Shown here one piece after another: positions 5,890-31,134 of a stretch of DNA of 64,000 bases. Numbering within the stretch: position 1 is the first letter of the stretch; each line of letters opens with the position of its first letter. The notes below the pieces were generated by a model, which saw only the letters and a program-made list of their open reading frames with translations, was not told the origin of the DNA and searched no databases. Both the position numbers and the translations under genes were made by a program. Where the stretch lies: NCBI RefSeq assembly GCF_965283645.1, contig NZ_CBDIPG010000002.1, forward strand, positions 124,113-188,112, read 5' to 3'. Source of the stretch: Kordia sp. (GTDB taxonomy: Bacteria; Bacteroidota; Bacteroidia; Flavobacteriales; Flavobacteriaceae).

Positions 5890-5997
5890 ACTTTACCGAA
5901 AAAATAAATATACGAAAAGATTAATGTTGGCAAAACTAGCATTGATCTTTTTTTAGCTTAAAAAGGTAAAATACAGTACAAATTATAGTGGAATCCC

Positions 5998-6005
5998 TAT
6001 ATTTG
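5998..6005 (+). promoter_or_regulatory. -7 promoter box for smpB
   Basis: TATATTTG 9 bp upstream of ATG 6015. Confidence 0.65.
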
Positions 6006-6014
6006 CGCTCATTT

Positions 6015-6473
6015 ATGCAAAAAAATATCAACATACAAAACAAGAAGGCGCGCTTTCAATATGAAATCTTAGATAAGTATACGGCAGGAATTGTCTTAAC
6101 GGGAACTGAGATTAAATCTATTCGAATGAGCAAAGCTTCTATTGCCGAAAGTTTCTGCGAATTTAACGAGCAAGGAGAACTTTTTGTGGTGAATATGTAT
6201 ATTGAAGAATATGCTTTTGGCACGCATTACAATCACCAACCGCGAAGTACACGAAAGTTGTTGTTGAATAAAAAAGAATTGCGAAGCTTAGAAAAAAGTA
6301 TCAAAAACGCTGGATTAACCATTGTTCCGTTGCGTTTATTCTTAAATGAAAAAGGATTGGCAAAATTATCTATTGCGCTTGCAAAAGGTAAAAAGATTCA
6401 TGACAAACGTGAAACGATGAAAGATCGTGACAACAAACGTAACCTGGATCGTATTAAGAAAAATTTCCGTTAA
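6015..6473 (+). CDS. smpB: SsrA-binding protein
   Basis: [39 protein letters not shown]; start at ATG 6015. Confidence 0.97.
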
Positions 6474-6569: not shown

Positions 6570-6617
6570 TTTACTAGTAATTCACGAATTACTTTGCTTG
6601 CATTACGGAAAACCGCA

Positions 6618-6648
6618 TTGTATATGTGTGCATTTTGTTTTACATTTA
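6618..6648 (+). promoter_or_regulatory. Candidate array promoter (Pc-like)
   Basis: TTG-N20-TACATTTA (one mismatch to TAnnTTTG), pointing into the cassette array. Confidence 0.4.
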
Positions 6649-6653
6649 GGGGA

Positions 6654-6742
6654 AATAACAGGAAGTTTCGATAAAAATACTTCCTGTTATTGACTAAATT
6701 TAGTATGAAAACGGGAATTCCTGTTATTCATACGTTAGCTGC
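6654..6742 (+). other. attI-like leader site of the cassette array
   Basis: TTCCTGTTATT at 6681 and 6718, inverted copy at 6654-6664, then GTTAGCT at 6734; no folded left arm, unlike the other sites. Confidence 0.5.
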
Positions 6743-6758
6743 AAGCTGAAAAAATCAA

Positions 6759-7046
6759 ATGGAACCTGAATTAAAAAAATACTTGCTCGAACAATGTCGA
6801 GATTGGATGCTTAAAGAAGAAATCAAAGTATTAAACAGATTAGGATTAACAGAACACGGAGAGACGGTTACACGAAAAAATGCTTTAGTTGAATATAAAA
6901 TGGAATTGTTTTATGGGTTTCAAGACAAAAAAGTAAATGATTTAGTTTCTTTAGAAAAAACTCTTGTGGAAGAAAGAATAGCAGAACGTATATTAAATGA
7001 TAACCCCGATATTCTGAATAATTGCTCAAATTGTGGAAAATTATGA
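6759..7046 (+). CDS. Cassette A hypothetical protein, ends in a lone CxxC
   Basis: 95 aa ORF 25 bp after the GTT site. Confidence 0.6.
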   Translation: MEPELKKYLLEQCRDWMLKEEIKVLNRLGLTEHGETVTRKNALVEYKMELFYGFQDKKVNDLVSLEKTLVEERIAERILNDNPDILNNCSNCGKL

Positions 7047-7447
7047 CTACAGAACCAAGAGGAAGATTATATCAAGATTCTGAATTTGAATTCAATGAGT
7101 TTAACGGATTAAAAATAGAAAAACTAATTGTCTGTGAAAATCCAGAGACTAAAGAGCCTATACTTATTTATATTAAAGTGGAAAATAGAAATTGGCATCA
7201 ATTCTTTTTGGACGCAGGAATAGGGTTTTGGGAAAACTGGGACGAAATTGACATTGAGGATGATTCTTATGATTTCATTGATTTTACTGACAAATTTGAT
7301 TTAAAAAACAAAGTTATTAATAGAATATTCTGTAAAAAAGATTTAAATAATAGCAGAATAATATTAGAACTGAAAAGCAACGAAAAGTTGATTTTAAAAT
7401 GCAAAGAGCCAAATATATTTGATTCTGATTGTGAATTAATAATGTAA
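7043..7447 (+). CDS. Cassette A second hypothetical protein
   Basis: ATG 7043 overlaps the upstream TGA (ATGA); acidic protein. Confidence 0.65.
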   Translation: MTTEPRGRLYQDSEFEFNEFNGLKIEKLIVCENPETKEPILIYIKVENRNWHQFFLDAGIGFWENWDEIDIEDDSYDFIDFTDKFDLKNKVINRIFCKKDLNNSRIILELKSNEKLILKCKEPNIFDSDCELIM

Positions 7448-7456
7448 AAAAGGCCA

Positions 7457-7655
7457 GCAGGTAACAAGGTATAAAAAACATAGGGCGCTTTAGGCTTATC
7501 CGAAAGATCTGTGTGTATTTGCAAAGTCACCGAATATAAAATTTGGCGTTTATGAGAAAAAAGATAAAAGCAAAATATTTATATTTGGCTTAGTACCAAC
7601 TCGAAACGTATCGCTTATTACCTGCCCTACGTTTCTTATACTAGCCGTTGTGCGT
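7457..7655 (+). repeat. attC-like site 1 (long class, about 200 bp)
   Basis: GGTAAC-AAG-GTATAA-N6-TAGGGC ... GCCCTA-N6-TTATAC-TAGCC-GTTGTGC. Confidence 0.8.
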
Positions 7656-7688
7656 CATTTAAGAACACTCGAATAAAAAAAGAAAATT

Positions 7689-7892
7689 ATGACAAATTAT
7701 ATTAACTGTGATAAACCTGAAAGTCCTTTCGGAAGAATTGAATGTAATAATTGCGGAGCGAAATATGATTTTGAATTTGACTCAATAAAAGCACCTTACA
7801 AAGAAACAGGAATTTTAAAATGTGCTTGTGGAGTTGACTTGGTAAGATGGAATAGTACGACTGAACCATATTTGGTAAGAGTTAATGAATAA
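7689..7892 (+). CDS. Cassette B small zinc-ribbon-like protein
   Basis: CNNC and CAC motifs; 67 aa; overlaps the next gene by 8 bp. Confidence 0.6.
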   Translation: MTNYINCDKPESPFGRIECNNCGAKYDFEFDSIKAPYKETGILKCACGVDLVRWNSTTEPYLVRVNE

Positions 7893-8277
7893 AACATACA
7901 AAATACATCTGAATGGAATTCTAATTGGGACTTCTGAATTAGAAAAAGCTGATGCACCAATGGGAGTTGCATTTGGACTGATTGTATTTAACCGAATTGA
8001 ATCGCCATACGAATTCTTTAAAGAATACTGTTTGAAAAACAATATTGTTATAAATACAGACGACCCAGAATTTGAATTTATCGACACTCAAGTGATATCT
8101 GGTTTAAAAGTATTTAGACAAGATGGACTGGAAATAAAAGGAGTTGCTGGAAATGCAATTACAGGAATGAAAAGAGATGGATATGAAATTTCAATTTTAG
8201 GAATCAATTATCCTTTTTACGAAGAAGAATTTCCACATCACGTAAAGGAATATGAAAATTTGTTCGGAAAAGAATAA
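7885..8277 (+). CDS. Cassette B hypothetical protein
   Basis: 130 aa ORF ending just before ACGCACAAC. Confidence 0.7.
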   Translation: MNKTYKIHLNGILIGTSELEKADAPMGVAFGLIVFNRIESPYEFFKEYCLKNNIVINTDDPEFEFIDTQVISGLKVFRQDGLEIKGVAGNAITGMKRDGYEISILGINYPFYEEEFPHHVKEYENLFGKE

Positions 8278-8283
8278 AAACGA

Positions 8284-8423
8284 ACGCACAACACCGTGTA
8301 TAATTAATTGCTTTGGTCGTTGCCTATTTGGAAAATTCCTTCGGAATTTTCTCGCGTTCGTTTTTGTTTACTAAATTAGTTGCTCAAACACGCAACTAAC
8401 CATACACATCAACGTTAGGCTTA
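8284..8423 (+). repeat. attC-like site 2 (medium class, about 140 bp)
   Basis: CACAAC-ACC-GTGTAT ... ATACAC-ATCAAC-GTTAGGC; internal hairpins GAAAATTCC/GGAATTTTC and TTAGTTGC/GCAACTAA. Confidence 0.85.
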
Positions 8424-8454
8424 ATTAGAAAAACCCGAGAGACCAATTCCATAA

Positions 8455-9024
8455 ATGAAAATATTCCTTAAAATTCTTGGACAAATAATAGCACTCGGAA
8501 TAGTAATCTTTTTAGGAATATTATTGACTTGGGAACAAATTCCTGGAAATAAAAATATTTGTGATGCTGGTCAAGGACTTTACGGATTAGCTTGGTTGAT
8601 TTTCATAATTATTTCAATCGCTTTGTTTATAAATTCTTGGATTTTTCTAAATAAAAATAATTGGAAAAAATACCGAATTACTGTTATGATAATCTGTGTA
8701 CTTATCGTTTTAATATCGTTAACTCTAAGGTCTGTGATTTTTCAAGTATCATATGGAAAAGAAAAACATAAAATTGAAAATACCGAAAATTACAATCAGT
8801 TAATTGAAGTAAAACTTTATGAAAATGGAAAATTCTATTCTTGGACTTATGATATGGGTTGTCAATTAGAAAATATCGGAACATATAAATTGAATGGAAA
8901 TAAAATAACATTGGAATTTGGAAATGAAAAATCTGAATATTTAGGAACAGAATATCTAATCGAAAATGATAAAGTTGTCTGTAATAAAGGTTGTGATTAC
9001 GAAAACGAATTGAAAATAGAATAA
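8455..9024 (+). CDS. Cassette C membrane protein (3 predicted TM plus soluble C-terminus)
   Basis: Three hydrophobic stretches in the N-terminal half. Confidence 0.75.
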   Translation: MKIFLKILGQIIALGIVIFLGILLTWEQIPGNKNICDAGQGLYGLAWLIFIIISIALFINSWIFLNKNNWKKYRITVMIICVLIVLISLTLRSVIFQVSYGKEKHKIENTENYNQLIEVKLYENGKFYSWTYDMGCQLENIGTYKLNGNKITLEFGNEKSEYLGTEYLIENDKVVCNKGCDYENELKIE

Positions 9025-9030
9025 AATAAC

Positions 9031-9170
9031 TAAGCCTAACACCGTGTATAATTAATTGCTTTGGTCGTTGCTTATTTGGAAAATTCCTTCGGAAGTTTCT
9101 TGCGTTCGTTTTTGTTTACTAAATTAGTTGCTTAAAGACGCAACTAACCATACACAATCACGTTAGGCAC
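9031..9170 (+). repeat. attC-like site 3 (medium class)
   Basis: Near-identical to site 2: GCCTAAC-ACC-GTGTAT ... ATACAC-AATCAC-GTTAGGC. Confidence 0.85.
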
Positions 9171-9206
9171 AAGCAAAAGAAACCAACATTAACCAACTAT
9201 ATTAGA

Positions 9207-9608
9207 ATGAGTTTAGTTCAAATTGACAAACAAAAACTAATCGATACAGGATTTACGGAATCTGGTGTAAAAAGGTATGAAAATACTATTACAGAATATT
9301 CCCAAATACTATTCGATAAGTCTAAAAAATTCGGAGAAGCGCGAAAGGCCAACGATTCTGCGGTAGAAATAAATTATGAAAATGTTCAAGGAGCTGTGAA
9401 GGTAATTTCTTCAACATTCGCAGATGAAAAAATACCGAAATGGAAATTATGGGCTCAATCTGGTGAATATCTGATAACCGCACTTTGTGGTTATTTAGGT
9501 TCTCAAGCGACACAAGATAATGCACCAAGTCACTTCACAATATTCTTTGTAATATCTGCAGTTGTCGGAGTAGGTTTGTTTATCGTTAGAAAAACTTCAA
9601 AAAACTAA
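9207..9608 (+). CDS. Cassette D protein 1: putative histone-fold domain plus 2 TM helices
   Basis: FTESGVKRY..EYSQILFDKSKKFGEARK..EINYENVQGA pattern; hydrophobic C-terminus. Confidence 0.6.
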   Translation: MSLVQIDKQKLIDTGFTESGVKRYENTITEYSQILFDKSKKFGEARKANDSAVEINYENVQGAVKVISSTFADEKIPKWKLWAQSGEYLITALCGYLGSQATQDNAPSHFTIFFVISAVVGVGLFIVRKTSKN

Positions 9609-9612
9609 AAAA

Positions 9613-10122
9613 ATGAAAAAGTCAATAAAATACACAGATTCGGCTTCAAAAAAACTTAATAGTGTTTTGGAGAAAGTCAAAGAACAAATTGCTGATGATA
9701 TCGTTAATTCTAAAAATTATCCTGGAGAAGAACTTATTGAAATAACAGCTTCAGATATTGAAGAAACTTATCGCAGATTAAGCATACGGAATAACAAGTC
9801 AACATTTTACAGAAAAAGTAAAATGATAAGAATGATAATTCCTGTTTATTTTATTTTGGGTATTATGCTAACACTTTTTGGCATTTTTAGAAAAGATATT
9901 ATGGAATTAATTAAAAATGACAAAGAGGGTCTTATGTATTCACTAACAGGTTTTGTGATATCTCTAACTTCTGCTGCTATATTTTATCTATACAAAAATA
10001 AAGAGAATGAAAGAAGACGTGAATATGAAAAAGAACGTAGAAATCTAAGTAAGTGGATATCTGAAATTGATTTAGAAAAATATGATACTGAATTTCTGAA
10101 AGATGAAAATGCCAGTGCCTAA
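9613..10122 (+). CDS. Cassette D protein 2: putative histone-fold domain plus 2 TM helices and charged tail
   Basis: YTDSASKKL..EITASDIEET pattern; stop codon lies inside GCCTAAC of site 4. Confidence 0.6.
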   Translation: MKKSIKYTDSASKKLNSVLEKVKEQIADDIVNSKNYPGEELIEITASDIEETYRRLSIRNNKSTFYRKSKMIRMIIPVYFILGIMLTLFGIFRKDIMELIKNDKEGLMYSLTGFVISLTSAAIFYLYKNKENERRREYEKERRNLSKWISEIDLEKYDTEFLKDENASA

Positions 10123-10318
10123 CATCGTATAAAAACAATAGGGCAATTGTAGCAAAACCGAATGGTTTGGGCGCATTTGCAAGGTCGCCAAATTTTTAAA
10201 TTTGGCTTATTGAGAAAGAAAAAATAATAAGAAAAATTTAAAAATTCAGCTTGTGGCTCAACCGAATAGATAGCGTGCAAATCTGCCCTACTGTTCTTAT
10301 ACACAACCGTTATATATA
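10115..10318 (+). repeat. attC-like site 4 (long class)
   Basis: GCCTAAC-ATC-GTATAA-N6-TAGGGC ... GCCCTA-N6-TTATAC-ACAACC-GTTATAT. Confidence 0.82.
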
Positions 10319-10703
10319 ATTCAAAAAAAGAATCGGAGACATCCGTTAGAAAAGAGATTTTGGAACGATTTTATGTAGTTTTTAAAATCAATAGGTTTTC
10401 ATTTAAGTTTTTGTCAGTTACACTGTGAAAGACAGTTCTTTCAAACATTGTTAATGTACTCAAAAACTTGATTTAAGGTAGTAGATTTATTTGACAAAAT
10501 CAACTCTTTATAAAAAACGATAAAATCTAACGTTGTAAATGCTAAAAAACAGCACACGCCTTATACAAATATAAAGCGCATCCTTTTTTTTATTTCAAAC
10601 GGATTTCAATGCTCATTTGGGCTCTTTTTTGAACTCCTGTTTTTTACTTGAATTTAAGTTGTATTTTAGTTCAATAAAGAACGCAAAAAAACATATATAT
10701 AAC
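10309..10703 (+). other. Cassette E: apparently non-coding cassette
   Basis: Bounded by GTTATATATA and TATATATAAC; no ORF of 60 aa or more in the track. Confidence 0.65.
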
Positions 10704-10751
10704 ATTGTGTAAACCTGCATTAAAACGCAGTTTACACTTAACGTTACCTGC
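10694..10751 (+). repeat. attC-like site 5 (short class, 58 bp)
   Basis: TATAAC-ATT-GTGTAAACCTGC-8 nt loop-GCAGTTTACAC-TTAAC-GTTACCT, with one unpaired C in the left arm. Confidence 0.8.
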
Positions 10752-10770
10752 AAGCTGAAAAAAATTGAGT

Positions 10771-11460
10771 ATGACAAAAAACATTACACTTCTGATTTTA
10801 ATATTTATTATTTCAAGTTGCTCTGCACAAGAAAATTTTAGAGATTATTATTATCAAATTGGAACAAAAAAGGAAATCAAAGTTTACAAATATGTTGACA
10901 AAAACAATCCAAGGAATATTGAATATTGGAAAGTTACTACAAACCCGAAAACAAATAAAATTCTAACCGAATCTTTCACAACTGATTTTAGACTTTACAA
11001 TATATTCGAGGAAGAGCTGAAAACAAATGGAGCGGAAATAATTCGTTATGCAGATTTTGAGGTTAATGACGAAAAACAGAATATACGGATTGACGGAACG
11101 ATTGTCGATAAAGATGTTTATAAATGGAATGACACAAACAAATATATTTATTCAGTCAAATACACGAGTCCAAAATATGGAAATGAACAATTCATAAAAG
11201 AACGAACTAAAAATAGCTTTGAAAAAATAACTATTAGCGGAACTGAATATTCAACATTAAAATTTAAGGATGAATACGAGATTAAATCACTCGAAAATGA
11301 CCAGAACTATGAATTTCATCAATTTACCTATTACGCAAAGGGAATTGGAATGGTAAAATACCAAAGGTATCATCCAGATGGAGCAACGATTGAATTAGAA
11401 TTAACCGAAATCCTAACTGAAAAAGAATTTGATGAACTGAAAGAAAAAGCCAGCAGGTAA
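10771..11460 (+). CDS. Cassette F lipoprotein
   Basis: Lipobox ISSC; stop codon inside GGTAAC of site 6; start at ATG 10771. Confidence 0.8.
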   Translation: MTKNITLLILIFIISSCSAQENFRDYYYQIGTKKEIKVYKYVDKNNPRNIEYWKVTTNPKTNKILTESFTTDFRLYNIFEEELKTNGAEIIRYADFEVNDEKQNIRIDGTIVDKDVYKWNDTNKYIYSVKYTSPKYGNEQFIKERTKNSFEKITISGTEYSTLKFKDEYEIKSLENDQNYEFHQFTYYAKGIGMVKYQRYHPDGATIELELTEILTEKEFDELKEKASR

Positions 11461-11589
11461 CACCGTATATAATTCATTGCTAGTTATAGCCAGTTTACGA
11501 AAGTCCTCGCGGACTTTATTTGTCCGTAATTTTTTATAAATTAGGTGCTTAAAACACGCAACAAACCATATACAACAACGTTGCCATTA
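11453..11589 (+). repeat. attC-like site 6 (medium class variant)
   Basis: GGTAAC-ACC-GTATAT-N6-TTGC ... GCAA-N6-ATATAC-AACAAC-GTTGCCA. Confidence 0.8.
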
Positions 11590-11599
11590 ATTAGAACCT

Positions 11600-12442
11600 A
11601 TGACCAGAAACATTCCGAAAAAGGTAAGAGAAGCTTTAAGAAAAGAAGTCAATTTTGGATGTCCAATTGATGGTTGTGGCAGTCCTTATTTGAGTTATCA
11701 TCATTTTGACCCACCTTGGCATATTGAAAATCATCATAGACCAGAGGGAATGATTGCATTATGCCTCGAACATCACAAGCAAGCCGATTATAATGCATTC
11801 ACAGATGACCAATTAAAAGAATTTAAAAAAAATCCGTTCCTATCTTCAGATGATTCAATACAAGGTCAAATAAATTGGAAAAGAGAGAATTTAGTTTTCT
11901 TAATTGGGGGAAATGTTTTCATTGGAGCTCAAAATATTTATCTCAATAAACAAGAACAATTGTTGTGGCTCACTACTGATGAACAAGGTAATTCACTTCT
12001 GAATTTAGATATGAAATCCGAAAAGGGAGAATTGATTTTTTCATTACGTGATAATGATTGGTTGGTTATGTCCAATTTTGATAATATTGAAAGTATTCCG
12101 AGCGGAAAAAAATTATTCTTCGAAAATAAAACAGAAGATTTAAAAATCGATATTGAATTTAATAACTATTCAAAAGTCGACTTTCAAAAGAAATATGCAG
12201 AAGATATTCCAGCGAGGTGGATAGAGATAATTACAAATAAAATTGTTGCTGAACCTATCACAGTCTGCGTAATCAATGGTCACTTAACTTATCCTTTTGA
12301 AATTAGAATGGAATCAACAGGCACTACAATAAACGGAGAAGGAAGCGAGATTACTGTAATGGGAAGTCTAACTCTAAAAAATGTCAAGGAACACATAATG
12401 CAAAGAGGATTAGTTGTCGGAAGTGGAGTACTGATAAAGTAA
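11600..12442 (+). CDS. Cassette G protein with N-terminal HNH-type nuclease domain
   Basis: RKEVNFGCPIDGC..YHHFDP..MIALCLEHH. Confidence 0.75.
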   Translation: MTRNIPKKVREALRKEVNFGCPIDGCGSPYLSYHHFDPPWHIENHHRPEGMIALCLEHHKQADYNAFTDDQLKEFKKNPFLSSDDSIQGQINWKRENLVFLIGGNVFIGAQNIYLNKQEQLLWLTTDEQGNSLLNLDMKSEKGELIFSLRDNDWLVMSNFDNIESIPSGKKLFFENKTEDLKIDIEFNNYSKVDFQKKYAEDIPARWIEIITNKIVAEPITVCVINGHLTYPFEIRMESTGTTINGEGSEITVMGSLTLKNVKEHIMQRGLVVGSGVLIK

Positions 12443-12443
12443 C

Positions 12444-12647
12444 TAATGGCAACAATGTATATAAAAAATAACGCAAGTCGTTGCTAAAACAAAGGCTTGG
12501 GCATTATTTGGAAGTCGCCAAATTTTTCAATTTGACAATTTCCTAAAAATAAAATAAATAGTAAAATTTAAAAATTCGGCTTGTGTATAATCTGAAAAGT
12601 ATCGCTTACAACTGCCCTACTTTTCTTATACGGAGACGTTGGCAGTA
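12444..12647 (+). repeat. attC-like site 7 (long class, mismatched left arm)
   Basis: GGCAAC-AAT-GTATAT ... GCCCTA-N6-TTATAC-GGAGAC-GTTGGCA; centre resembles site 4. Confidence 0.75.
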
Positions 12648-12655
12648 ATACCGAA

Positions 12656-13744
12656 ATGAACATAGAATTAGAAAACCTACAATCGACTATAAAAAGGAAG
12701 TACAGTTTTAAATATAAACCTGAATTTTCTGAATCTTTCAAGACAGATATAAAAGACAACCAAATAATCCCATTAACTATTGAAGTTTTTGAAAAATTAG
12801 AATGGCCAATTGTCTTTAGAGACAATAAGTCAGTTGAAGCTAAAAGGAAAGGCGACTGGAATAAACTGACCGAAAAAATAACAATTACCAAAAAGGCTTC
12901 TGGTCGAATTGAGGTTCATAGTAAAACAATTGAAGGTAATTTCATTGATTTCGGAAAAAACTCTAAAAGAACTGGTTTATTCATTATTCTTTTTCAAAAG
13001 TTAGCTAAAGAATACCAAGAAAGCGGAAAACTCTCTGAATTAGAAACGGAGTTTGAAAAAGAAAACAGTTGGGCAGATTATGAAATTCCTTCAGAATTAC
13101 CAAAACCAAAAGAATTTGGAAAACCAAATTTAGTTCTTTCAATAATTGGAGGTCTTATTATCGCAATTCTGTTTGGAATATTAATTGCGTTTTTAACTAC
13201 AAAATTTACCTATTTCATTGGAATCTATGAATTCGCAATTGGAATCGGTATTGGATACTTCTTTGGTCAAGTTTTAAAGAAAACTAATTACATTGAGTTT
13301 AGATCAATTCAATTTATCATTGGAGGAATCGTGATTGTAATGTTTATAACGAATCTATTCACACAATATCAATTAATAATCGCAGAGAATAACATTTCAG
13401 AACTTAGCTTTTTTGAATTTATGAAACTGCGTTTTGAAGGCGGGTTAACAATAAAGGATTTAAATACAGGTTGGATTGGACTTACTTTAAGTTGGGTTTT
13501 TCAAATGGTTTTCCCTTACTTTTTAGCTGTCGGTAAAGTTGCAGGAATTACAGCAAATTATATTATTGAAAAAATTCCTGAAAAAGTACTTGAATATACA
13601 ATTTATCTTTTCGAAATGGAAAAGTCAGAAAGTGAAGTTAGAGCTGAATTAGCACAAAAAGGATGGAATAAAAAGTCTGACCAAGATAATGTTTTTAAAG
13701 CTATTGTCGAGATAAGTGGATTTCATCAAATGAACAGAGAATAA
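12656..13744 (+). CDS. Cassette H membrane protein (soluble N-terminus, about 4 TM)
   Basis: 362 aa with Gly-rich hydrophobic helices in the C-terminal half. Confidence 0.78.
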   Translation: MNIELENLQSTIKRKYSFKYKPEFSESFKTDIKDNQIIPLTIEVFEKLEWPIVFRDNKSVEAKRKGDWNKLTEKITITKKASGRIEVHSKTIEGNFIDFGKNSKRTGLFIILFQKLAKEYQESGKLSELETEFEKENSWADYEIPSELPKPKEFGKPNLVLSIIGGLIIAILFGILIAFLTTKFTYFIGIYEFAIGIGIGYFFGQVLKKTNYIEFRSIQFIIGGIVIVMFITNLFTQYQLIIAENNISELSFFEFMKLRFEGGLTIKDLNTGWIGLTLSWVFQMVFPYFLAVGKVAGITANYIIEKIPEKVLEYTIYLFEMEKSESEVRAELAQKGWNKKSDQDNVFKAIVEISGFHQMNRE

Positions 13745-13750
13745 AAGTAC

Positions 13751-13880
13751 TACTTGGCAACACCGTAAATAATTAATTGCTATTTATAATATACTTATGA
13801 AAACCCTCGCAGATTCTCTATTCATTTTTATTCGCCAAATTATATTCTTAAACAAATAATACACAAAACCATTACCAATA
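13751..13880 (+). repeat. Eroded attC-like site 8 (medium class)
   Basis: GGCAAC-ACC-GTAAATAATTAATTGC left arm aligns to sites 2, 3 and 6; right end reads ATTACC instead of GTT. Confidence 0.55.
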
Positions 13881-13886
13881 ATTAAG

Positions 13887-14282
13887 ATGAAGAAAATAAT
13901 TTTCATATTAACTTTGATATGCATATCTACTATTGGATTCAGTCAAACAGATTCAATTAAAGGAAACCAATTTGAACTAACGGGAAAGATTATCAATGAA
14001 ATTTCTTTAACTCCTCATTGTGGAAATTTTGCTTTCGGAACGGTCGTTGAATTTGAAATTATCGAATTTTCTGACTCCAATTATAAAGGTAGTTCTATAG
14101 GTGTGATTTTTACTTGTCCTGAATTCTATAAAAGTGGATTTTTTGAGATTGGAAAGACTTATACAATTACCATTGCTGATGAAAATCAAGCAGACTTCAG
14201 TTGGATTATTCCTAATGAATATATATTGAATAAATACAAGTTGGACAAAAAACTGTGGGTCATTGAAGCGAATAAGAAATAA
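13887..14282 (+). CDS. Cassette I-like secreted hypothetical protein
   Basis: Signal peptide MKKIIFILTLICISTIGFSQ. Confidence 0.75.
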   Translation: MKKIIFILTLICISTIGFSQTDSIKGNQFELTGKIINEISLTPHCGNFAFGTVVEFEIIEFSDSNYKGSSIGVIFTCPEFYKSGFFEIGKTYTITIADENQADFSWIIPNEYILNKYKLDKKLWVIEANKK

Positions 14283-14412
14283 TAAAATATGAAATCATAG
14301 TTCACTACGGCTGTTATGTTATATATACTAAACGTTACAAATTCCAAATACACAAAACCAAGCACATTCAAGATTTCCCAAATGTGCTCAACTTAAAATA
14401 TAGTAGTGTTTT

Positions 14413-17400
14413 CTAAACAACAACTTCCTCAGAAGTTTTCGATGTCAACTTTGTGAACTCTTGATTATCTTTCTGAAAATCTACCAATCGTGCAAAAAAC
14501 CAAATAAAGGCTTCTACTTGTCCGTTTAGCACAAATCTTCCACTAGAAATATGATCCAATACAGCTTGTATATCTAACGTTTGTAACGCAGTAAATGCTT
14601 CTTGATGTTGAATCCATACAGCACAAGAAGGCAAATCTGTGATGACTTCTGTATTTTGTGCTATATTTCCATCTTGTATAACAATTGTAATTGGCGTACT
14701 CTTTTCAGAAATACGCATGGAAATCGCAAGATTCGGTGTTGGGCGCGTAATTTGTGTCAACCAACGCTGCAAATACGAAGCAAACGTAGTTACCCAATAT
14801 TGAAGTGCTTCCCGCGTTACATTCACTTTTTCCTGCTTTTGTTCTTCAATAAGCATTTGCGCATCTATTTCGCGTTCAGCTTCAATAAGTGCTTCCAGCG
14901 TTTTATCAATATCTTTTCGCGTATGCGCTGCCGAACAAATAAATCGTAAACGTCCACGCCCAATTTCAACAATTGGATAGGTTACCGCCAAGGTTTGAAC
15001 GCCACGTTTGTACAAACTTTGCACAATAGCATACAATTTATCTTTATCGCCAAAATGTGGTGTGATAATTGGTCCGTCACCTGTGCCTAAATCATAGCCA
15101 GCTTCTTCAAATCGTCGGCGCATGTATCGTGTTCTGTCCCATAATTGTTCGCGTAGTTTTTCATCAGCGCGAAGCATTCTCAATGAAGTCAACGCTGCAG
15201 CAATATCTGCCGGACTGATAGACGCCTGAAATATATACGCTCTTGAGGATGCTTTTAACAAACCTATATGTTCACGACTCGCGGCAATAATTCCACCGAT
15301 ACTTCCCAACGCTTTGCTCAGTGTTGTCATTAAGAAATCTACATCTGCGGTTGCACCTTGTTCGGCACAAATTCCAGCTCCATTTTTTCCATAAAAACCA
15401 AAAGAATGTGCTTCATCTACAAACGTAAGTGCATTGTATTTTTTTGCCATACGCACAACTTCTGCTACAGGCGCAGTTCCTTCTCCCATACTATACACAC
15501 TTTCCAACACTACCAAAACTGTGCGATACGGAGAAACTTCTGTCTGTAACACTGCTTCTAAATCGTTTGCATCATTGTGTTTAAATGTTCGTATTTCGGC
15601 ACCGCTCAAACGCGCGCCATCTACTATGGAAGCATGACACAATTGATCGATAATGACAACATCATTTTTTCCAAGAATTCCAGAAATGGCACCTACATTT
15701 GCCGTGTAACCTGTGGGAAACAAGCAAGCATCTTCTTTTCCGACCAAATCAGCAAACTCTCTTTCAAAAGCTACATGCTGATTCGTCATTCCAGATGCCG
15801 ATGCAGAAATCCCCATTCCTGTACCAAATTTTTCCAAAGCGGCTGTCGCTTCTTTGATCACGTTGGCATCTCTATTTAAACCAAAATACAAGTTCGTAGA
15901 CCAAATAATTGCTTCCTGTTCTTCATCATTAAATGCATCACCAACTACACCTGTGGCGGCACTTCCAGTTCGTAATACTTTCCCGTAAGGATTTCTACGA
16001 TTGTCATTTACCATACGCAACACTTCCTGCACAAGCTTGCTTTTATCATCCGCGCTCCAAGCTGTTGCGTTTGCCGCTTGAAACGTTGGAAAACTCGCTT
16101 GAATATCAAATTGAAATTTCGCCAGCGTATCACTCATCACCTTGCACGGTTGATGTGTAGGTTGTGCTTCCACTCCATTGGTTGTTATGTTGGCAATATA
16201 AGTTGCCAAAGCATTTGCTGTTGGATATTCAAAAACCGTTGGCGCTGTGATCTTTTTTCCTAACGATTTTGAAAGTCTACTGCTAAATTCCAACGTAGTT
16301 AACGAATCGAGTCCGAATGCATCAAACGGTTGATTGGGTAAGATTTCTTTTGGATCGTTTATATTAAGAATCGTAGCAATTCCGCTTTGAATAGTAGCTA
16401 AAATGGCTTCTTTTAAGGAGTTATTTGAATTTTTAAAGCTTTCCAGCAGATTTTCCTCAGTAGTTTGTTTTGTCGATGGAGTTTGTGACAAACGCATGAG
16501 TTGCTTTCGATCAAGCTTATCATTTGGTAACAATGGCAATTCATCTAAATAATTAACAACTTGCGGCACCATATATTTTGGCAATCGTTCCGAAATGTAT
16601 GATTTGATGTTTTCCGTTGTAATTGATGCATCTTTCTTTACAACGTATACAACCAACATTTGTTGACCAATGCCGCCTTCAACAGCCGCAGCCGCTACAG
16701 CATCAATGCCATTCATTGATTCAAGTGTAGATTCAATTTCTTCGAGTTCAATTCGGAAACCTCTAATTTTCACTTGTTGATCAACTCTTCCCAGAAATTC
16801 AATTTCCCCATTTTCTGTCCAACGGCATAAATCGCCTGTTTTATACAATCTGTTATCTGGAATAGCTTCCGAAGGTGTAATTTCAATAAAACGTTCCTTT
16901 GTTTTTACTTCATCATATAAATAACCACGCGCCAATTTCGTTCCCGCAAGGTGTAATTCTCCAGCATCTCCATTAGATACAGGTTGTAAATTATCATTTA
17001 AAATATACGCTCGTGAGTTTGGAACTGACTTTCCAATTGTAATAACTTTTGCATCACGAGCAACTTCTGAAATCGTTGAATATACGGTATCTTCAGTAGG
17101 TCCGTATGCGTTTAAGACTCTTTCAACTGAATCATGTGCATACACTTGCTGCACCAATGAACGCTTTAGAGCTTCTCCTCCAAAAACAACACACTTTATA
17201 TTTTCAGGTAATATTTCTGTTGCCAATAATGCTTGTACTGACGACGGAACCATTACAAATGTTCGTACTTCATCTAACGCTGGAATTTTAGTCAATTCTA
17301 AAGCATTTTTTACTAATATTATTTTTCCACCAAGTGATAATGTTCCCATGATTTCCATCACAGACGTATCAAAACAAACAGATGCTGCAGCAAGCATTCC

Positions 17401-17985
17401 GTTCAATTCTTCATCACTAAATATTTCGCGTACGGAAGCACGCATTTCCACTATATTTTTATGCTCAACCGCTACACCTTTTGGTTTTCCTGTAGAACCT
17501 GAGGTATAAATTACATATGCCAATTCATTTTTAGATGCATGTATTTTTTCGTCTGAATGATTTCCGAGTTTGTCAATCCACAATACATTTTCAACTTCAT
17601 TACACAAATCCGCAGTAGCTTTTGTATCAACAATTGCAGCTTTCGATTTCGAATTTGTCAACATATATTTAATACGATCTTTCGGATATGCAGGATCTAA
17701 CGGAACATACGCGCAACCTGCTTGCATTACGCCTAGTAATGTTGCTACTAATTCCCAAGAACGATTCATACAAACACCAACTAATGATCTGGCTGTTACA
17801 CCACGATTTTTGAGTTCTCCAGCTACTTCATTGGCTTTTTTCATCAACCGTTGATACTCAATATTGAGTTCTCCGTCAATGATTGCTATTCGTTCTGGAT
17901 GTGCCAGCATTTGTTTTTTGATCAATCCACAAATTGTTATTTCTGGATTGTCTTCAATCTGTTGCATTAATGTATCCATTTTCAT
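14413..17985 (-). CDS. Standalone NRPS-like enzyme: adenylation - ACP - PLP-dependent alpha-oxoamine synthase - SCP2-like C-terminus
   Basis: YTSGSTGKPKG, NAYGPTE, YKTGDL and KIRGFRIEL (A domain); FGLDSL (ACP); DQLCHASIVDG, VDEAHS and TLSKALG (AOS); SGRFVLNGQ (SCP2-like). Confidence 0.88.
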   Translation of the reverse strand: MKMDTLMQQIEDNPEITICGLIKKQMLAHPERIAIIDGELNIEYQRLMKKANEVAGELKNRGVTARSLVGVCMNRSWELVATLLGVMQAGCAYVPLDPAYPKDRIKYMLTNSKSKAAIVDTKATADLCNEVENVLWIDKLGNHSDEKIHASKNELAYVIYTSGSTGKPKGVAVEHKNIVEMRASVREIFSDEELNGMLAAASVCFDTSVMEIMGTLSLGGKIILVKNALELTKIPALDEVRTFVMVPSSVQALLATEILPENIKCVVFGGEALKRSLVQQVYAHDSVERVLNAYGPTEDTVYSTISEVARDAKVITIGKSVPNSRAYILNDNLQPVSNGDAGELHLAGTKLARGYLYDEVKTKERFIEITPSEAIPDNRLYKTGDLCRWTENGEIEFLGRVDQQVKIRGFRIELEEIESTLESMNGIDAVAAAAVEGGIGQQMLVVYVVKKDASITTENIKSYISERLPKYMVPQVVNYLDELPLLPNDKLDRKQLMRLSQTPSTKQTTEENLLESFKNSNNSLKEAILATIQSGIATILNINDPKEILPNQPFDAFGLDSLTTLEFSSRLSKSLGKKITAPTVFEYPTANALATYIANITTNGVEAQPTHQPCKVMSDTLAKFQFDIQASFPTFQAANATAWSADDKSKLVQEVLRMVNDNRRNPYGKVLRTGSAATGVVGDAFNDEEQEAIIWSTNLYFGLNRDANVIKEATAALEKFGTGMGISASASGMTNQHVAFEREFADLVGKEDACLFPTGYTANVGAISGILGKNDVVIIDQLCHASIVDGARLSGAEIRTFKHNDANDLEAVLQTEVSPYRTVLVVLESVYSMGEGTAPVAEVVRMAKKYNALTFVDEAHSFGFYGKNGAGICAEQGATADVDFLMTTLSKALGSIGGIIAASREHIGLLKASSRAYIFQASISPADIAAALTSLRMLRADEKLREQLWDRTRYMRRRFEEAGYDLGTGDGPIITPHFGDKDKLYAIVQSLYKRGVQTLAVTYPIVEIGRGRLRFICSAAHTRKDIDKTLEALIEAEREIDAQMLIEEQKQEKVNVTREALQYWVTTFASYLQRWLTQITRPTPNLAISMRISEKSTPITIVIQDGNIAQNTEVITDLPSCAVWIQHQEAFTALQTLDIQAVLDHISSGRFVLNGQVEAFIWFFARLVDFQKDNQEFTKLTSKTSEEVVV

Positions 17986-30031: not shown

Positions 30032-30937
30032 ATGTCTAACTATCTTATTTCAATCGTTGGCGCAACTGCCATTGGAAAAACTGCATTGAGCATTCAATTG
30101 GCACAACATTTCAATACGGAAATCATTTCGTGTGATTCACGTCAGTTTTTTAAAGAAATGGCAATCGGAACTGCGGTTCCTTCCGAAGAAGAGCAAAATG
30201 CCGCACCACATCATTTTATTCAACACATTAGCATTTTTGATAATTATAATGTTGGACAGTTTGAAAAAGATGCTATTGCCAAACTTGACGACTTGTTTCA
30301 AACAAACAAAGTTGTCATTATGGTTGGCGGAAGTGGTTTGTATGTAGATGCCGTTTTGAAAGGTTTAGACGATTTTCCAAAGGTAGATCCTAAAATTAGA
30401 GAAACGTTAAATCAACAGTTAGAAACCGAAGGTATTACTTCTCTTCAAGATAAATTACAGGAACTCGATCCTGTTTATTATAAAAAAGTAGCATTGGAAA
30501 ACCCACATCGATTGATTCGTGCTTTAGAGATTTGTATTGGAAGTGGAAAACCATATTCGAGCTTTTTGAAATCTGAAACGACACAGCGTAATTTTACTTC
30601 GATTAAAATTGGGCTCACCGCAGACAGAGAAATTATATACGATCGTATTAACAGACGCGTTGAAATTATGATGCAAGAAGGTCTGTTGGAAGAAGCAAAA
30701 ACACTATATCCACATAAAACGTTGAATGCTTTACAAACCGTTGGTTACCGTGAATTGTTCAATTATTTTGATGGAAATTTCACGTTGGATGTTGCTATTC
30801 ATGAAATTAAGAAGAATACACGCCGATTTGCCAAACGACAAGGAACTTGGTTTCGAAGAGATGAAAACACGAATTGGTTTGATTATGAAGAAGATATTAA
30901 ACGTATTATTGAGAAAATTGAAAGTTTGATTTGTTGA
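30032..30937 (+). CDS. miaA: tRNA dimethylallyltransferase
   Basis: GATAIGKT, DSRQF, VGGSGLY, TRRFAKRQ.TWF. Confidence 0.96.
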   Translation: MSNYLISIVGATAIGKTALSIQLAQHFNTEIISCDSRQFFKEMAIGTAVPSEEEQNAAPHHFIQHISIFDNYNVGQFEKDAIAKLDDLFQTNKVVIMVGGSGLYVDAVLKGLDDFPKVDPKIRETLNQQLETEGITSLQDKLQELDPVYYKKVALENPHRLIRALEICIGSGKPYSSFLKSETTQRNFTSIKIGLTADREIIYDRINRRVEIMMQEGLLEEAKTLYPHKTLNALQTVGYRELFNYFDGNFTLDVAIHEIKKNTRRFAKRQGTWFRRDENTNWFDYEEDIKRIIEKIESLIC

Positions 30938-31134
30938 TTTGTGTATTTATTTATTTATTTGAAAATATATACTTTATTCAGAGTTTTGAATTTCTCGTAA
31001 TGACATTTTATTAGATTTTCAGCACGTAAATTCGAATGATTTTTTTTTAAATTTCACTCAGACTGACGGTTTGTATATTGAAGCACTCAACTACCAAAAT
31101 ACCAACAGTAAAACTAATACCAAAACCAAAAAAA

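Follow-up and report, generated by a model that had tools for sequence, protein, structure and literature searches.

The window analysed here is a stretch of 64,000 nucleotides (positions 124113–188112 of contig 2) from the genome of a Kordia species, which measures 5.77 Mb at 33% G+C. Positions 6603–14340 of this window, with a G+C content of 33.6%, hold an attI-like head followed by nine co-oriented units, called A to I here. We are highly confident, judging from the sequence, that this region is an integron-type array, and that its cassettes would have been inserted as circles by a tyrosine recombinase cutting at G|TT. The cassette sites fall into three types of approximately 45, 127, and 190 nt, and the window contains seven intact sites and one decayed site. 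On its left side, a site reads ...AAC-A, followed by a 3-nt spacer and a GTRTA... stem that leads into a variable body. On its right side, a ...TAYAC stem is followed by a spacer of 5–6 nt with a final C and then by GTT.... In terms of boxes, the order is R′′ (...AAC), the 3-nt spacer, the L′′ stem, the variable body, the L′ stem, the 5–6-nt spacer, and R′ (GTT...). The features of the locus are given below in window coordinates (ORF, open reading frame; for cassettes B to G, the start is given before the end).

5988–6473: smpB, upstream of the array head.
6603–6736, plus strand: attI-like head; it includes a promoter-like stretch and, at 6734, a GTT preceded by CATAC.
6681 and 6718: the head motif TTCCTGTTATT, with an inverted copy at 6654, within the attI-like head.
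6711–6724: the head palindrome ACGGGAATTCCTGT, within the attI-like head.
6735–7647, plus strand: cassette A, with overlapping ORFs at 6759–7046 and 7043–7447 and a site of ~190 nt at 7459–7653; the ends match at 8/9 positions.
7648–8414, plus strand: cassette B, with ORFs at 7689–7892 and 7885–8277 and a site of ~127 nt at 8286–8420; ends GTTGTGCGT and ACGCACAAC, which pair over a run of 9, against a run of 3 inside the site.
8415–9162, plus strand: cassette C, with an ORF at 8455–9024 and a site of ~127 nt at 9034–9168; ends GTTAGGCTTA and TAAGCCTAAC, own run 10.
9163–10309, plus strand: cassette D, with ORFs at 9207–9608 and 9613–10122 and a site of ~190 nt at 10117–10315; ends GTTAGGCAC and GTGCCTAAC, own run 9.
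10310–10743, plus strand: cassette E, non-coding, with a 45-nt site at 10697–10749; ends GTTATATATA and TATATATAAC.
10744–11580, plus strand: cassette F, with an ORF at 10765–11460 and a site of ~127 nt at 11455–11586; ends GTTACCTGC and GCAGGTAAC.
11581–12638, plus strand: cassette G, with an ORF at 11600–12442 and a site of ~190 nt at 12447–12644; ends GTTGCCATTA and TAATGGCAAC.
12639–13871, plus strand: cassette H, with an ORF at 12656–13744 and a decayed site at about 13755–13877; the right triplet is ATT at 13871, and the ends are unmatched.
13872–14340, plus strand: unit I, the last, with an ORF at 13887–14282 and no recognisable site at its end.
14413–17985: convergent gene resembling a non-ribosomal peptide synthetase (NRPS-like), before which the array stops.

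The start of each of the cassettes B to G is the reverse complement of that cassette's own end. The sequence-only reading of this DNA had listed these six pairs, and all 12 of its 12 strings were found in place and exact. Counted from GTT/AAC, the perfect run is 9 in B, 10 in C, 9 in D, 10 in E, 9 in F, and 10 in G. The same reading had counted five different sequences after GTT; there are actually six, since C and D have only AGGC in common. Its match of 8/9 for cassette A was borne out, with a perfect run of 4 and 9 of 12 positions paired. The ends of cassette H are also imperfect (run 4). It had also stated that in most in-array sites the two ends differ beyond GTT/AAC; the facing arms of these sites indeed pair over runs of only 3, 3, 7, 4, 4, 3, and 4. 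In a matrix of each cassette start against each cassette end in the window array, the own pairs stand out with runs of 9–10. Beyond them, the start of F matches the end of A over a run of 9, because cassettes A and F have alike ends. C and D cross-match over a run of 7 (the common GTTAGGC), and no further long match between ends of different cassettes was present.

An estimate of the chance of such matches had been proposed with the original observation, and the rates obtained are low. Among background GTT...AAC pairs lying 300–1500 nt apart outside the array, 14 of 28,575 reach a run of at least 9 (4.9×10−4). When real cassette ends are paired randomly, 0.67% do so. Even with the conservative rate, six matches out of six would be expected with a probability below about 10−13. 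These low rates exclude a chance origin of the end matches. Such end-to-end complementarity is the textbook integron mark of circle insertion at G|TT, and the signature as such is already known.

According to the proposed mechanism, each cassette would exist as a circle and would be inserted by a tyrosine recombinase, with the cut placed between G and TT. Insertion would carry TT and the next 7–8 bases of the cassette's own right arm to the cassette start. The split arms would then lie about 0.4–1.1 kb apart, one at the start and the other as the left arm at the end. This splitting of the arms would explain why start and end are reverse complements of each other and why the two arms of an in-array site come from different cassettes. 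In the textbook model, the R′ and R′′ arms pair in the folded bottom strand, which is cut between A and C of its AAC (PMC5027507). Read on the top strand, this bottom-strand cut falls at G|TT, and whatever follows the G therefore moves together with the downstream cassette. The sequence-only reading had proposed circles with a perfect hairpin site opened by crossover at or next to G|TT. The circle and the crossover are supported by the conserved boundaries and the G|TT junctions described below, but the perfect hairpin is not. In the rebuilt site, only the outer (R-box) stem is perfect, and there are an asymmetric unpaired spacer and wobble positions.

If the cassettes move as units, the same cassettes in other contexts should be bounded at the same GTT, as the sequence-only reading had anticipated, and this holds for E, F, G, and H. 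Cassette E occurs in five copies in the Kordia genome with 89–94% identity (window 10309–10749; C1:1265958–1266401, 5516034–5516475, 5519007–5519449, and, on the minus strand, 30672–31072 of the genome, G000). The homology runs from exactly GTT to exactly ...TTAAC-GTT. The left flanks of the copies are five unrelated contexts, made up of three different attC types and two attI-like heads. In one recombinase locus, cassette E is the first cassette after attI, and an E-like unit was also found in other Kordia loci (L009, L138). The minus-strand copy (C1:31050–31075) lies directly behind an attI-like head and has GTTGTGTGGC instead of GTTATATATA as its first 10 nt. Its two ends are therefore unpaired, and this copy may be a fusion or deletion product.

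Orthologues of cassette G were found in Urechidicola sp. KH5 (86% amino acid identity) and in two metagenome contigs (87% and 73%). All of these lie in unidirectional arrays; they start with GTTGCCATTAATTA and end with TAACTAATGGCAAC, and their upstream flanks are unrelated. The two ends of cassette F recur in its orthologues from Tenacibaculum crassostreae (92%), Algibacter (77%), and a metagenome contig (94%). For cassette H, the orthologues in Mangrovimonas and two other records (87–91%) have perfect 10-nt ends, GTTGCCAGTA and TACTGGCAAC. One H orthologue has GTTACCAGTA and TACTGGTAAC instead, a compensatory double change (G>A and C>T) that keeps the pairing. Compared with these, the window copy of H differs at base 5 of its start (C>G) and by one inserted nucleotide in its end arm. 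The poor match of H in the window is thus due to a point change in one arm and an insertion in the other. A 77%-identical homologue of the H membrane protein in Winogradskyella schleiferi (L101, 5001–6089) is an ordinary chromosomal gene beside the threonine operon, and no cassette ends were seen at this homologue. The Winogradskyella gene may show what a cassette gene looks like outside a cassette.

From Kordia alone, the position of the crossover can be resolved only to within the invariant CGTT, and a search there for variant AAC/GTT triplets that might place it gave nothing usable. The Tenacibaculum orthologue of F is a single cassette behind a head of ~78 nt, and this head occurs at least nine times in that genome. 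One of these heads is empty and has the sequence ...TTAACC-AAT-AGCGAAAC. In the head occupied by F, the left junction reads ...TTGACC-ATT-ACCTGC, and the right junction, behind the F hairpin body, reads ...CCAAACC-GAT-AGTGAAAC. A GAT also follows the hairpin body at four further array ends, whose sequence is ...CC-GAT-AGCGAAAC. Exchange between a head cut at A|AT and a circle cut at G|TT predicts A+TT on the left and G+AT on the right, which matches the observed junctions. In occupied heads the first base of the triplet varies (G, T, or A), and TT is invariant. As far as these sequences allow a crossover to be placed, the empty and occupied heads fit only G|TT. Cuts before the triplet, after GT, or after GTT were also considered; each predicts a junction that is absent from the Tenacibaculum heads.

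These heads form a dispersed family of Tenacibaculum's own (L102 3895–4830; L107–L124). They flank short arrays in the form head-left...ACC N|TT...cassettes...G|AT AGYGAAAC, with one empty head (L110/L120).

The head in the window is similar to the site that immediately follows the recombinase gene in this and other Kordia genomes (...CGGAATTCCGTATATACATAC|GTT). This head repeat was found in every Kordia genome searched (19, this one included). It is a dispersed repeat present in dozens of places across the 19 genomes, with up to about 15 copies per genome. We sampled 20 heads from other Kordia genomes. In all of these the homology ends exactly at GTT and is followed by 20 different cassette starts; no empty head was among them. 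The locus itself also varies. One Kordia genome has about 520 nt, and no head, between smpB and the NRPS-like gene, and in four others smpB abuts pcmt. Three further Kordia genomes have a head and 2–11.6 kb of different content between smpB and the NRPS-like gene.

Homologous sites are found elsewhere in the Kordia genome in four further arrays and as singletons. A covariance model built on 20 trimmed sites was intolerant of long insertions, and its run on the genome recovered short sites only (about 10 additional ones). It was replaced by home-made position-weight and pairing scans, which miss some sites and return some false ones. The position-weight scan of the genome gave 37 long sites and none on reversed or complement-only control sequence, which brings the genome total to about 47. 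In these scans, 61 matches lay on the opposite strand. Of the 34 inter-site intervals in the Kordia genome, the own-end run is 9 or longer in 20. When other Bacteroidota loci were included and intervals of up to 2.5 kb were considered, the count was 61 of 107, compared to 1 of 107 for the in-site partners. The genera in this set include Kordia, Allomuricauda, Algibacter, Polaribacter, Sediminicola, Pedobacter, and Urechidicola; metagenome-assembled genomes of Cytophagales and Bacteroidales are also part of it. Most of the intervals below a run of 9 probably reflect missed or false sites.

Among the 64 good cassettes, the start 10-mer takes 49 distinct forms. At arm positions 4–9, essentially all pairs are Watson–Crick, with 2–4 pair types at each position, and the covariation is strong. 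At position 11, A stands opposite C in 48 of the 64, which is a G·T pair on the bottom strand only, and pairing resumes at position 12 in most cassettes. When the sites were rebuilt in their circle form, the computed folding energy was better for the bottom strand in 60 of 65 (by a mean of 2.8 kcal mol−1). The aligned 13 bp of the L stem in the long sites (127- and 190-nt types) contain no bulges, only bottom-strand G·T positions. The 45-nt type is the sole type with a bulge, a single base that is G on the bottom strand. We infer that the bottom strand is the one that would fold and recombine. A recurrent variant of the left arm (...TGCAAC-AGG(C/T)AC-A..) has six additional bases before the spacer (C1:1268612–1268624, 5524263–5524275, and others in this genome; also L087 and L016). 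Cassettes with this end gave no own-end match under the parsing used.

Inverted ends of 9–10 bp that are perfect on each unit, and orthologues that conserve exactly the stretch between the ends, could also be read as transposon-like units with terminal inverted repeats, inserted by a transposase between existing structured intergenic repeats. We regard this as very improbable. No single transposase could read all of the 49 distinct end 10-mers among 64 cassettes, and neither target duplications nor a transposase were found. The units are all co-oriented and lie only beside hairpin sites, and recent copies take in the downstream hairpin. The Tenacibaculum junctions fit a reciprocal G|TT exchange, and the arrays begin at a site beside a tyrosine recombinase. 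Even less credible is an origin of the matches by chance, through base composition, or under some unrelated constraint (transcript structure, for instance), although the region is A+T-rich and one of the pairs is a simple TATATATA run. The rates for background and for randomly paired ends given above argue against this, as do the match of own ends where neighbouring arms do not match, the recurrence of the pattern in several Bacteroidota orders, and the compensatory change in the H orthologue.

The hairpin bodies raise a different alternative. In the orthologues of G, H, and F, both arms are kept exactly, but the type of body often switches immediately after AAC. G, for example, has a body of the 127-nt type in L094 and in L097, but of the 190-nt type in the window and in L096. 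Between orthologous cassettes, the bodies share 46–72% identity; in five of six cases each of them is 73–89% identical to a body behind an unrelated cassette in its own genome or locus. Two paralogous modules that are 73% identical have 96%-identical bodies. The persistent moving unit might thus be only a gene module and two complementary arms (TT...AA). Bodies would then be a separate component, exchanged through a second, top-strand crossover at the AAC in the left arm, and would assort independently of the modules. The exact arms with a switch right after AAC, the closer likeness of bodies within a genome or locus than between orthologues, and the paralogous modules with their near-identical bodies all favor this. 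So does the lack of bulges in the 13 bp of the L stem of the long sites, since bulges enforce the strand choice in classical attC (PMC5027507). On the other hand, recent copies keep their own body: all five copies of E do so, and a 99%-identical pair has a 100%-identical body, which fits the classical cassette definition. The 73%-identical pair with its 96%-identical bodies can be counted here as well. The lone F cassette of Tenacibaculum brought its body along and ends at G|AT. The two strands are also not equivalent, given spacers of 3 versus 5–6 nt and G·T pairs on the bottom strand only. As a replacement for insertion of whole circles at G|TT, this scheme appears unlikely to us. A second crossover at AAC as a rarer, extra pathway beside G|TT insertion is plausible from these comparisons. 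Only tentatively do we put forward the possibility that a gene and its two arms together make up the stable unit of transfer, with bodies that would be swapped by such a rarer left-arm crossover.

Candidates for the recombinase lie elsewhere in the genome, where there are two intact Xer-like genes of 428 aa (amino acids) at C1:1264570 and C1:5512573. The two differ at 3 residues. Each has an attI-like site and a homologous array about 100 nt downstream on the same strand. The recombinase gene and its attI are duplicated as a block of 1,463 bp with 99% identity (C1:1264500–1265961 and C1:5512502–5513964). The right end of this platform lies exactly at the attI GTT; beyond it, cassette E follows in one copy and a different cassette in the other. 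The left end begins at AAGTTGAAAAC, so that the recombinase and its attI may have been moved together as one block. The 428-aa protein has the catalytic R, H-x-x-R, H, and Y residues, as read directly from its sequence. It scores 221 bits against NF040815 (‘XerA / integron integrase’; cut-off 220). The nearest structures are XerA (5hxy) and VchIntIA. Residues 1–135 are predicted to fold into two tandem β-β-α-β-β-α repeats (mean predicted local distance difference test score 91). These repeats are probably HARP-like. The Pfam HARP family matches 3 of 12 homologues weakly (best E value 3.7×10−4), and the profile match to the HARP domain of SMARCAL1 (4o66) is weak as well (E value 0.016). Foldseek gave no significant match for this domain, and a HARP match appeared at a low probability of 0.23. 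HARP domains bind forked DNA and junctions of single- and double-stranded DNA.

The recombinase is 77–83% identical to those of K. jejudonensis, K. algicida, and K. aestuariivivens. Homologues of it are spread over Bacteroidota, and arrays that show this end signature come after them. The genome also has ordinary Xer-like genes of about 300 aa. An intact close orthologue is present in only 7 of the 19 Kordia genomes (this one included). In three others the gene is broken, with several stop codons, and heads and arrays are still present (G012:C6:105733–106095, G007:C4:312872–313255, and G015:C2:20118–21076). Heads are found in all 19 genomes and an intact enzyme in 7; the arrays thus outlast the enzyme. 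We infer that the 428-aa HARP-bearing Xer-like recombinase would act on the window array in trans and that this array may still be active.

Several observations weigh against an active integron-type array served by this enzyme. No recombinase was found within the 64-kb window. No protein of the genome reaches the cut-off for integron integrases (TIGR02249; best 188 bits against 265), and positions 170–240 of this model are unmatched in the best genome proteins. In the alignment of the candidate to VchIntIA (2a3v), chain residues 200–247 are skipped, and approximately 5 residues stand in their place. By both profile and alignment, the IntI-specific domain is absent from the candidate recombinase. 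The placement of the crossover at G|TT derives from another genus, whose recombinase is 42% identical. The differing bodies of orthologous cassettes are not predicted by a simple single crossover at G|TT. Finally, the window array may be a fossil, in which cassettes A and H already have decayed ends.

The Kordia arrays share much with classical integrons such as class 1 and the sedentary array of Vibrio cholerae. In both, the genes are co-oriented and largely orphans, and behind each lies an imperfect hairpin site. The Kordia sites have the R′′/L′′/L′/R′ boxes and the invariant AAC and GTT by which attC is recognised. Also shared are the crossover at G|TT, the pairing of a cassette's first bases with its own end, site bodies that are similar within a genome, and an attI-like head with a promoter-like stretch; a bottom-strand bias, which in Kordia is computed from folding and pairing, may be shared too. 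The differences lie in the enzyme and in the details of the sites. The Kordia candidate has no IntI-specific domain and carries N-terminal HARP-like repeats. The R stem of the Kordia sites is 9–10 bp and cassette-specific, whereas the classical one is a 7-bp GTTRRRY consensus. The unpaired spacer is asymmetric (3 versus 5–6 nt) where classical sites have 5–6 nt on each arm; the long Kordia sites are without bulges in the aligned 13 bp of the L stem where classical attC has extrahelical bases on the bottom strand; and the Kordia sites are up to about 199 nt long, compared to 57–141 nt (all PMC5027507). Classical integrons have a single attI beside intI, together with a promoter for the cassettes. 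In contrast, each Kordia genome has many attI-like heads in scattered places that are distant from any recombinase, and the head in the window is one of these.

Recombinase genes that lie upstream of the cassettes on the same strand are also a feature of ‘inverted-integrase’ integrons, reportedly described by Boucher et al. in 2007 in Treponema denticola, Chlorobi, and Planctomycetes. Those have a true IntI with the extra domain, unlike the Kordia candidate. This additional domain around patch III is taken as the defining feature of integron integrases (Messier and Roy 2001, as cited in PMC9668308). In having at least two sites and no integrase nearby, the window array is like the attC clusters that are without an integron integrase (CALIN; PMC4889954; PMC9024848), although the Kordia sites were identified by home-made scans. 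It differs from CALIN in retaining its own attI-like head. Among Xer recombinases (XerA and XerC/D, on which CTX phage depends to integrate as folded single-stranded DNA), XerA is closest to the candidate by both sequence and structure. Apart from integron integrases, Xer enzymes alone among tyrosine recombinases are known to act on folded single strands (PMC5027507). The Kordia enzyme differs from them in heading cassette arrays and in its N-terminal HARP-like domain of ~135 aa. The 2022 IntegronFinder survey (Neron et al., PMC9024848) names one complete integron in Bacteroidetes proper, in Salinibacter ruber. An earlier survey, as that paper relates it, had detected only In0 in Bacteroidetes. 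In a literature search of incomplete coverage, we found no published description of the present system in Flavobacteriia or Bacteroidota. The Kordia system is an integron variant, with the known end signature and with a candidate enzyme that lacks the defining integrase domain.

What is new here is the placement of G|TT from empty and occupied heads and the exchange of bodies between orthologous cassettes. The arrays offer the clearest evidence at the level of sequence that a recombinase family without the integron-defining domain would perform circle insertion at G|TT. They also support integron-type gene capture as common in Bacteroidota, a phylum that is nearly empty in integron surveys. 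The long cassette-specific arms predict exact circle junctions; for cassette C, this would be ...AACTAAGCCTAAC, the 121-nt C|D body, and G|TTAGGCTTAATTAG. The heads that occur naturally in empty and occupied form could readily serve for tests. The body exchange is relevant to how cassettes and their sites arise and stay uniform. If it is real, the HARP-bearing recombinase would have a looser strand choice than IntI, and the exchange would provide a mechanism for the old puzzle of alike sites but unlike genes within a chromosomal array.

The content of the cassettes gives few hints of function. The cassette proteins of the window matched no Pfam or NCBIfam family, and tblastn found no paralogues of them in the Kordia genome and the fetched loci. 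A few distant homologues of the cassette G product carry the source name HNH endonuclease. Cassettes A, B, and D each have two small genes without a family match, which overlap or lie 4 nt apart. These two-gene cassettes may be modules such as toxin–antitoxin pairs. ParE/ParD cassettes are present in related arrays (L097, L098). For cassette E, no Rfam family reached the gathering score, and its sole match was a chance microRNA (E value 0.1). On its minus strand, at about 10566–10573, cassette E has a promoter-like box of the Bacteroidetes type (TTTG...TATATTTG).

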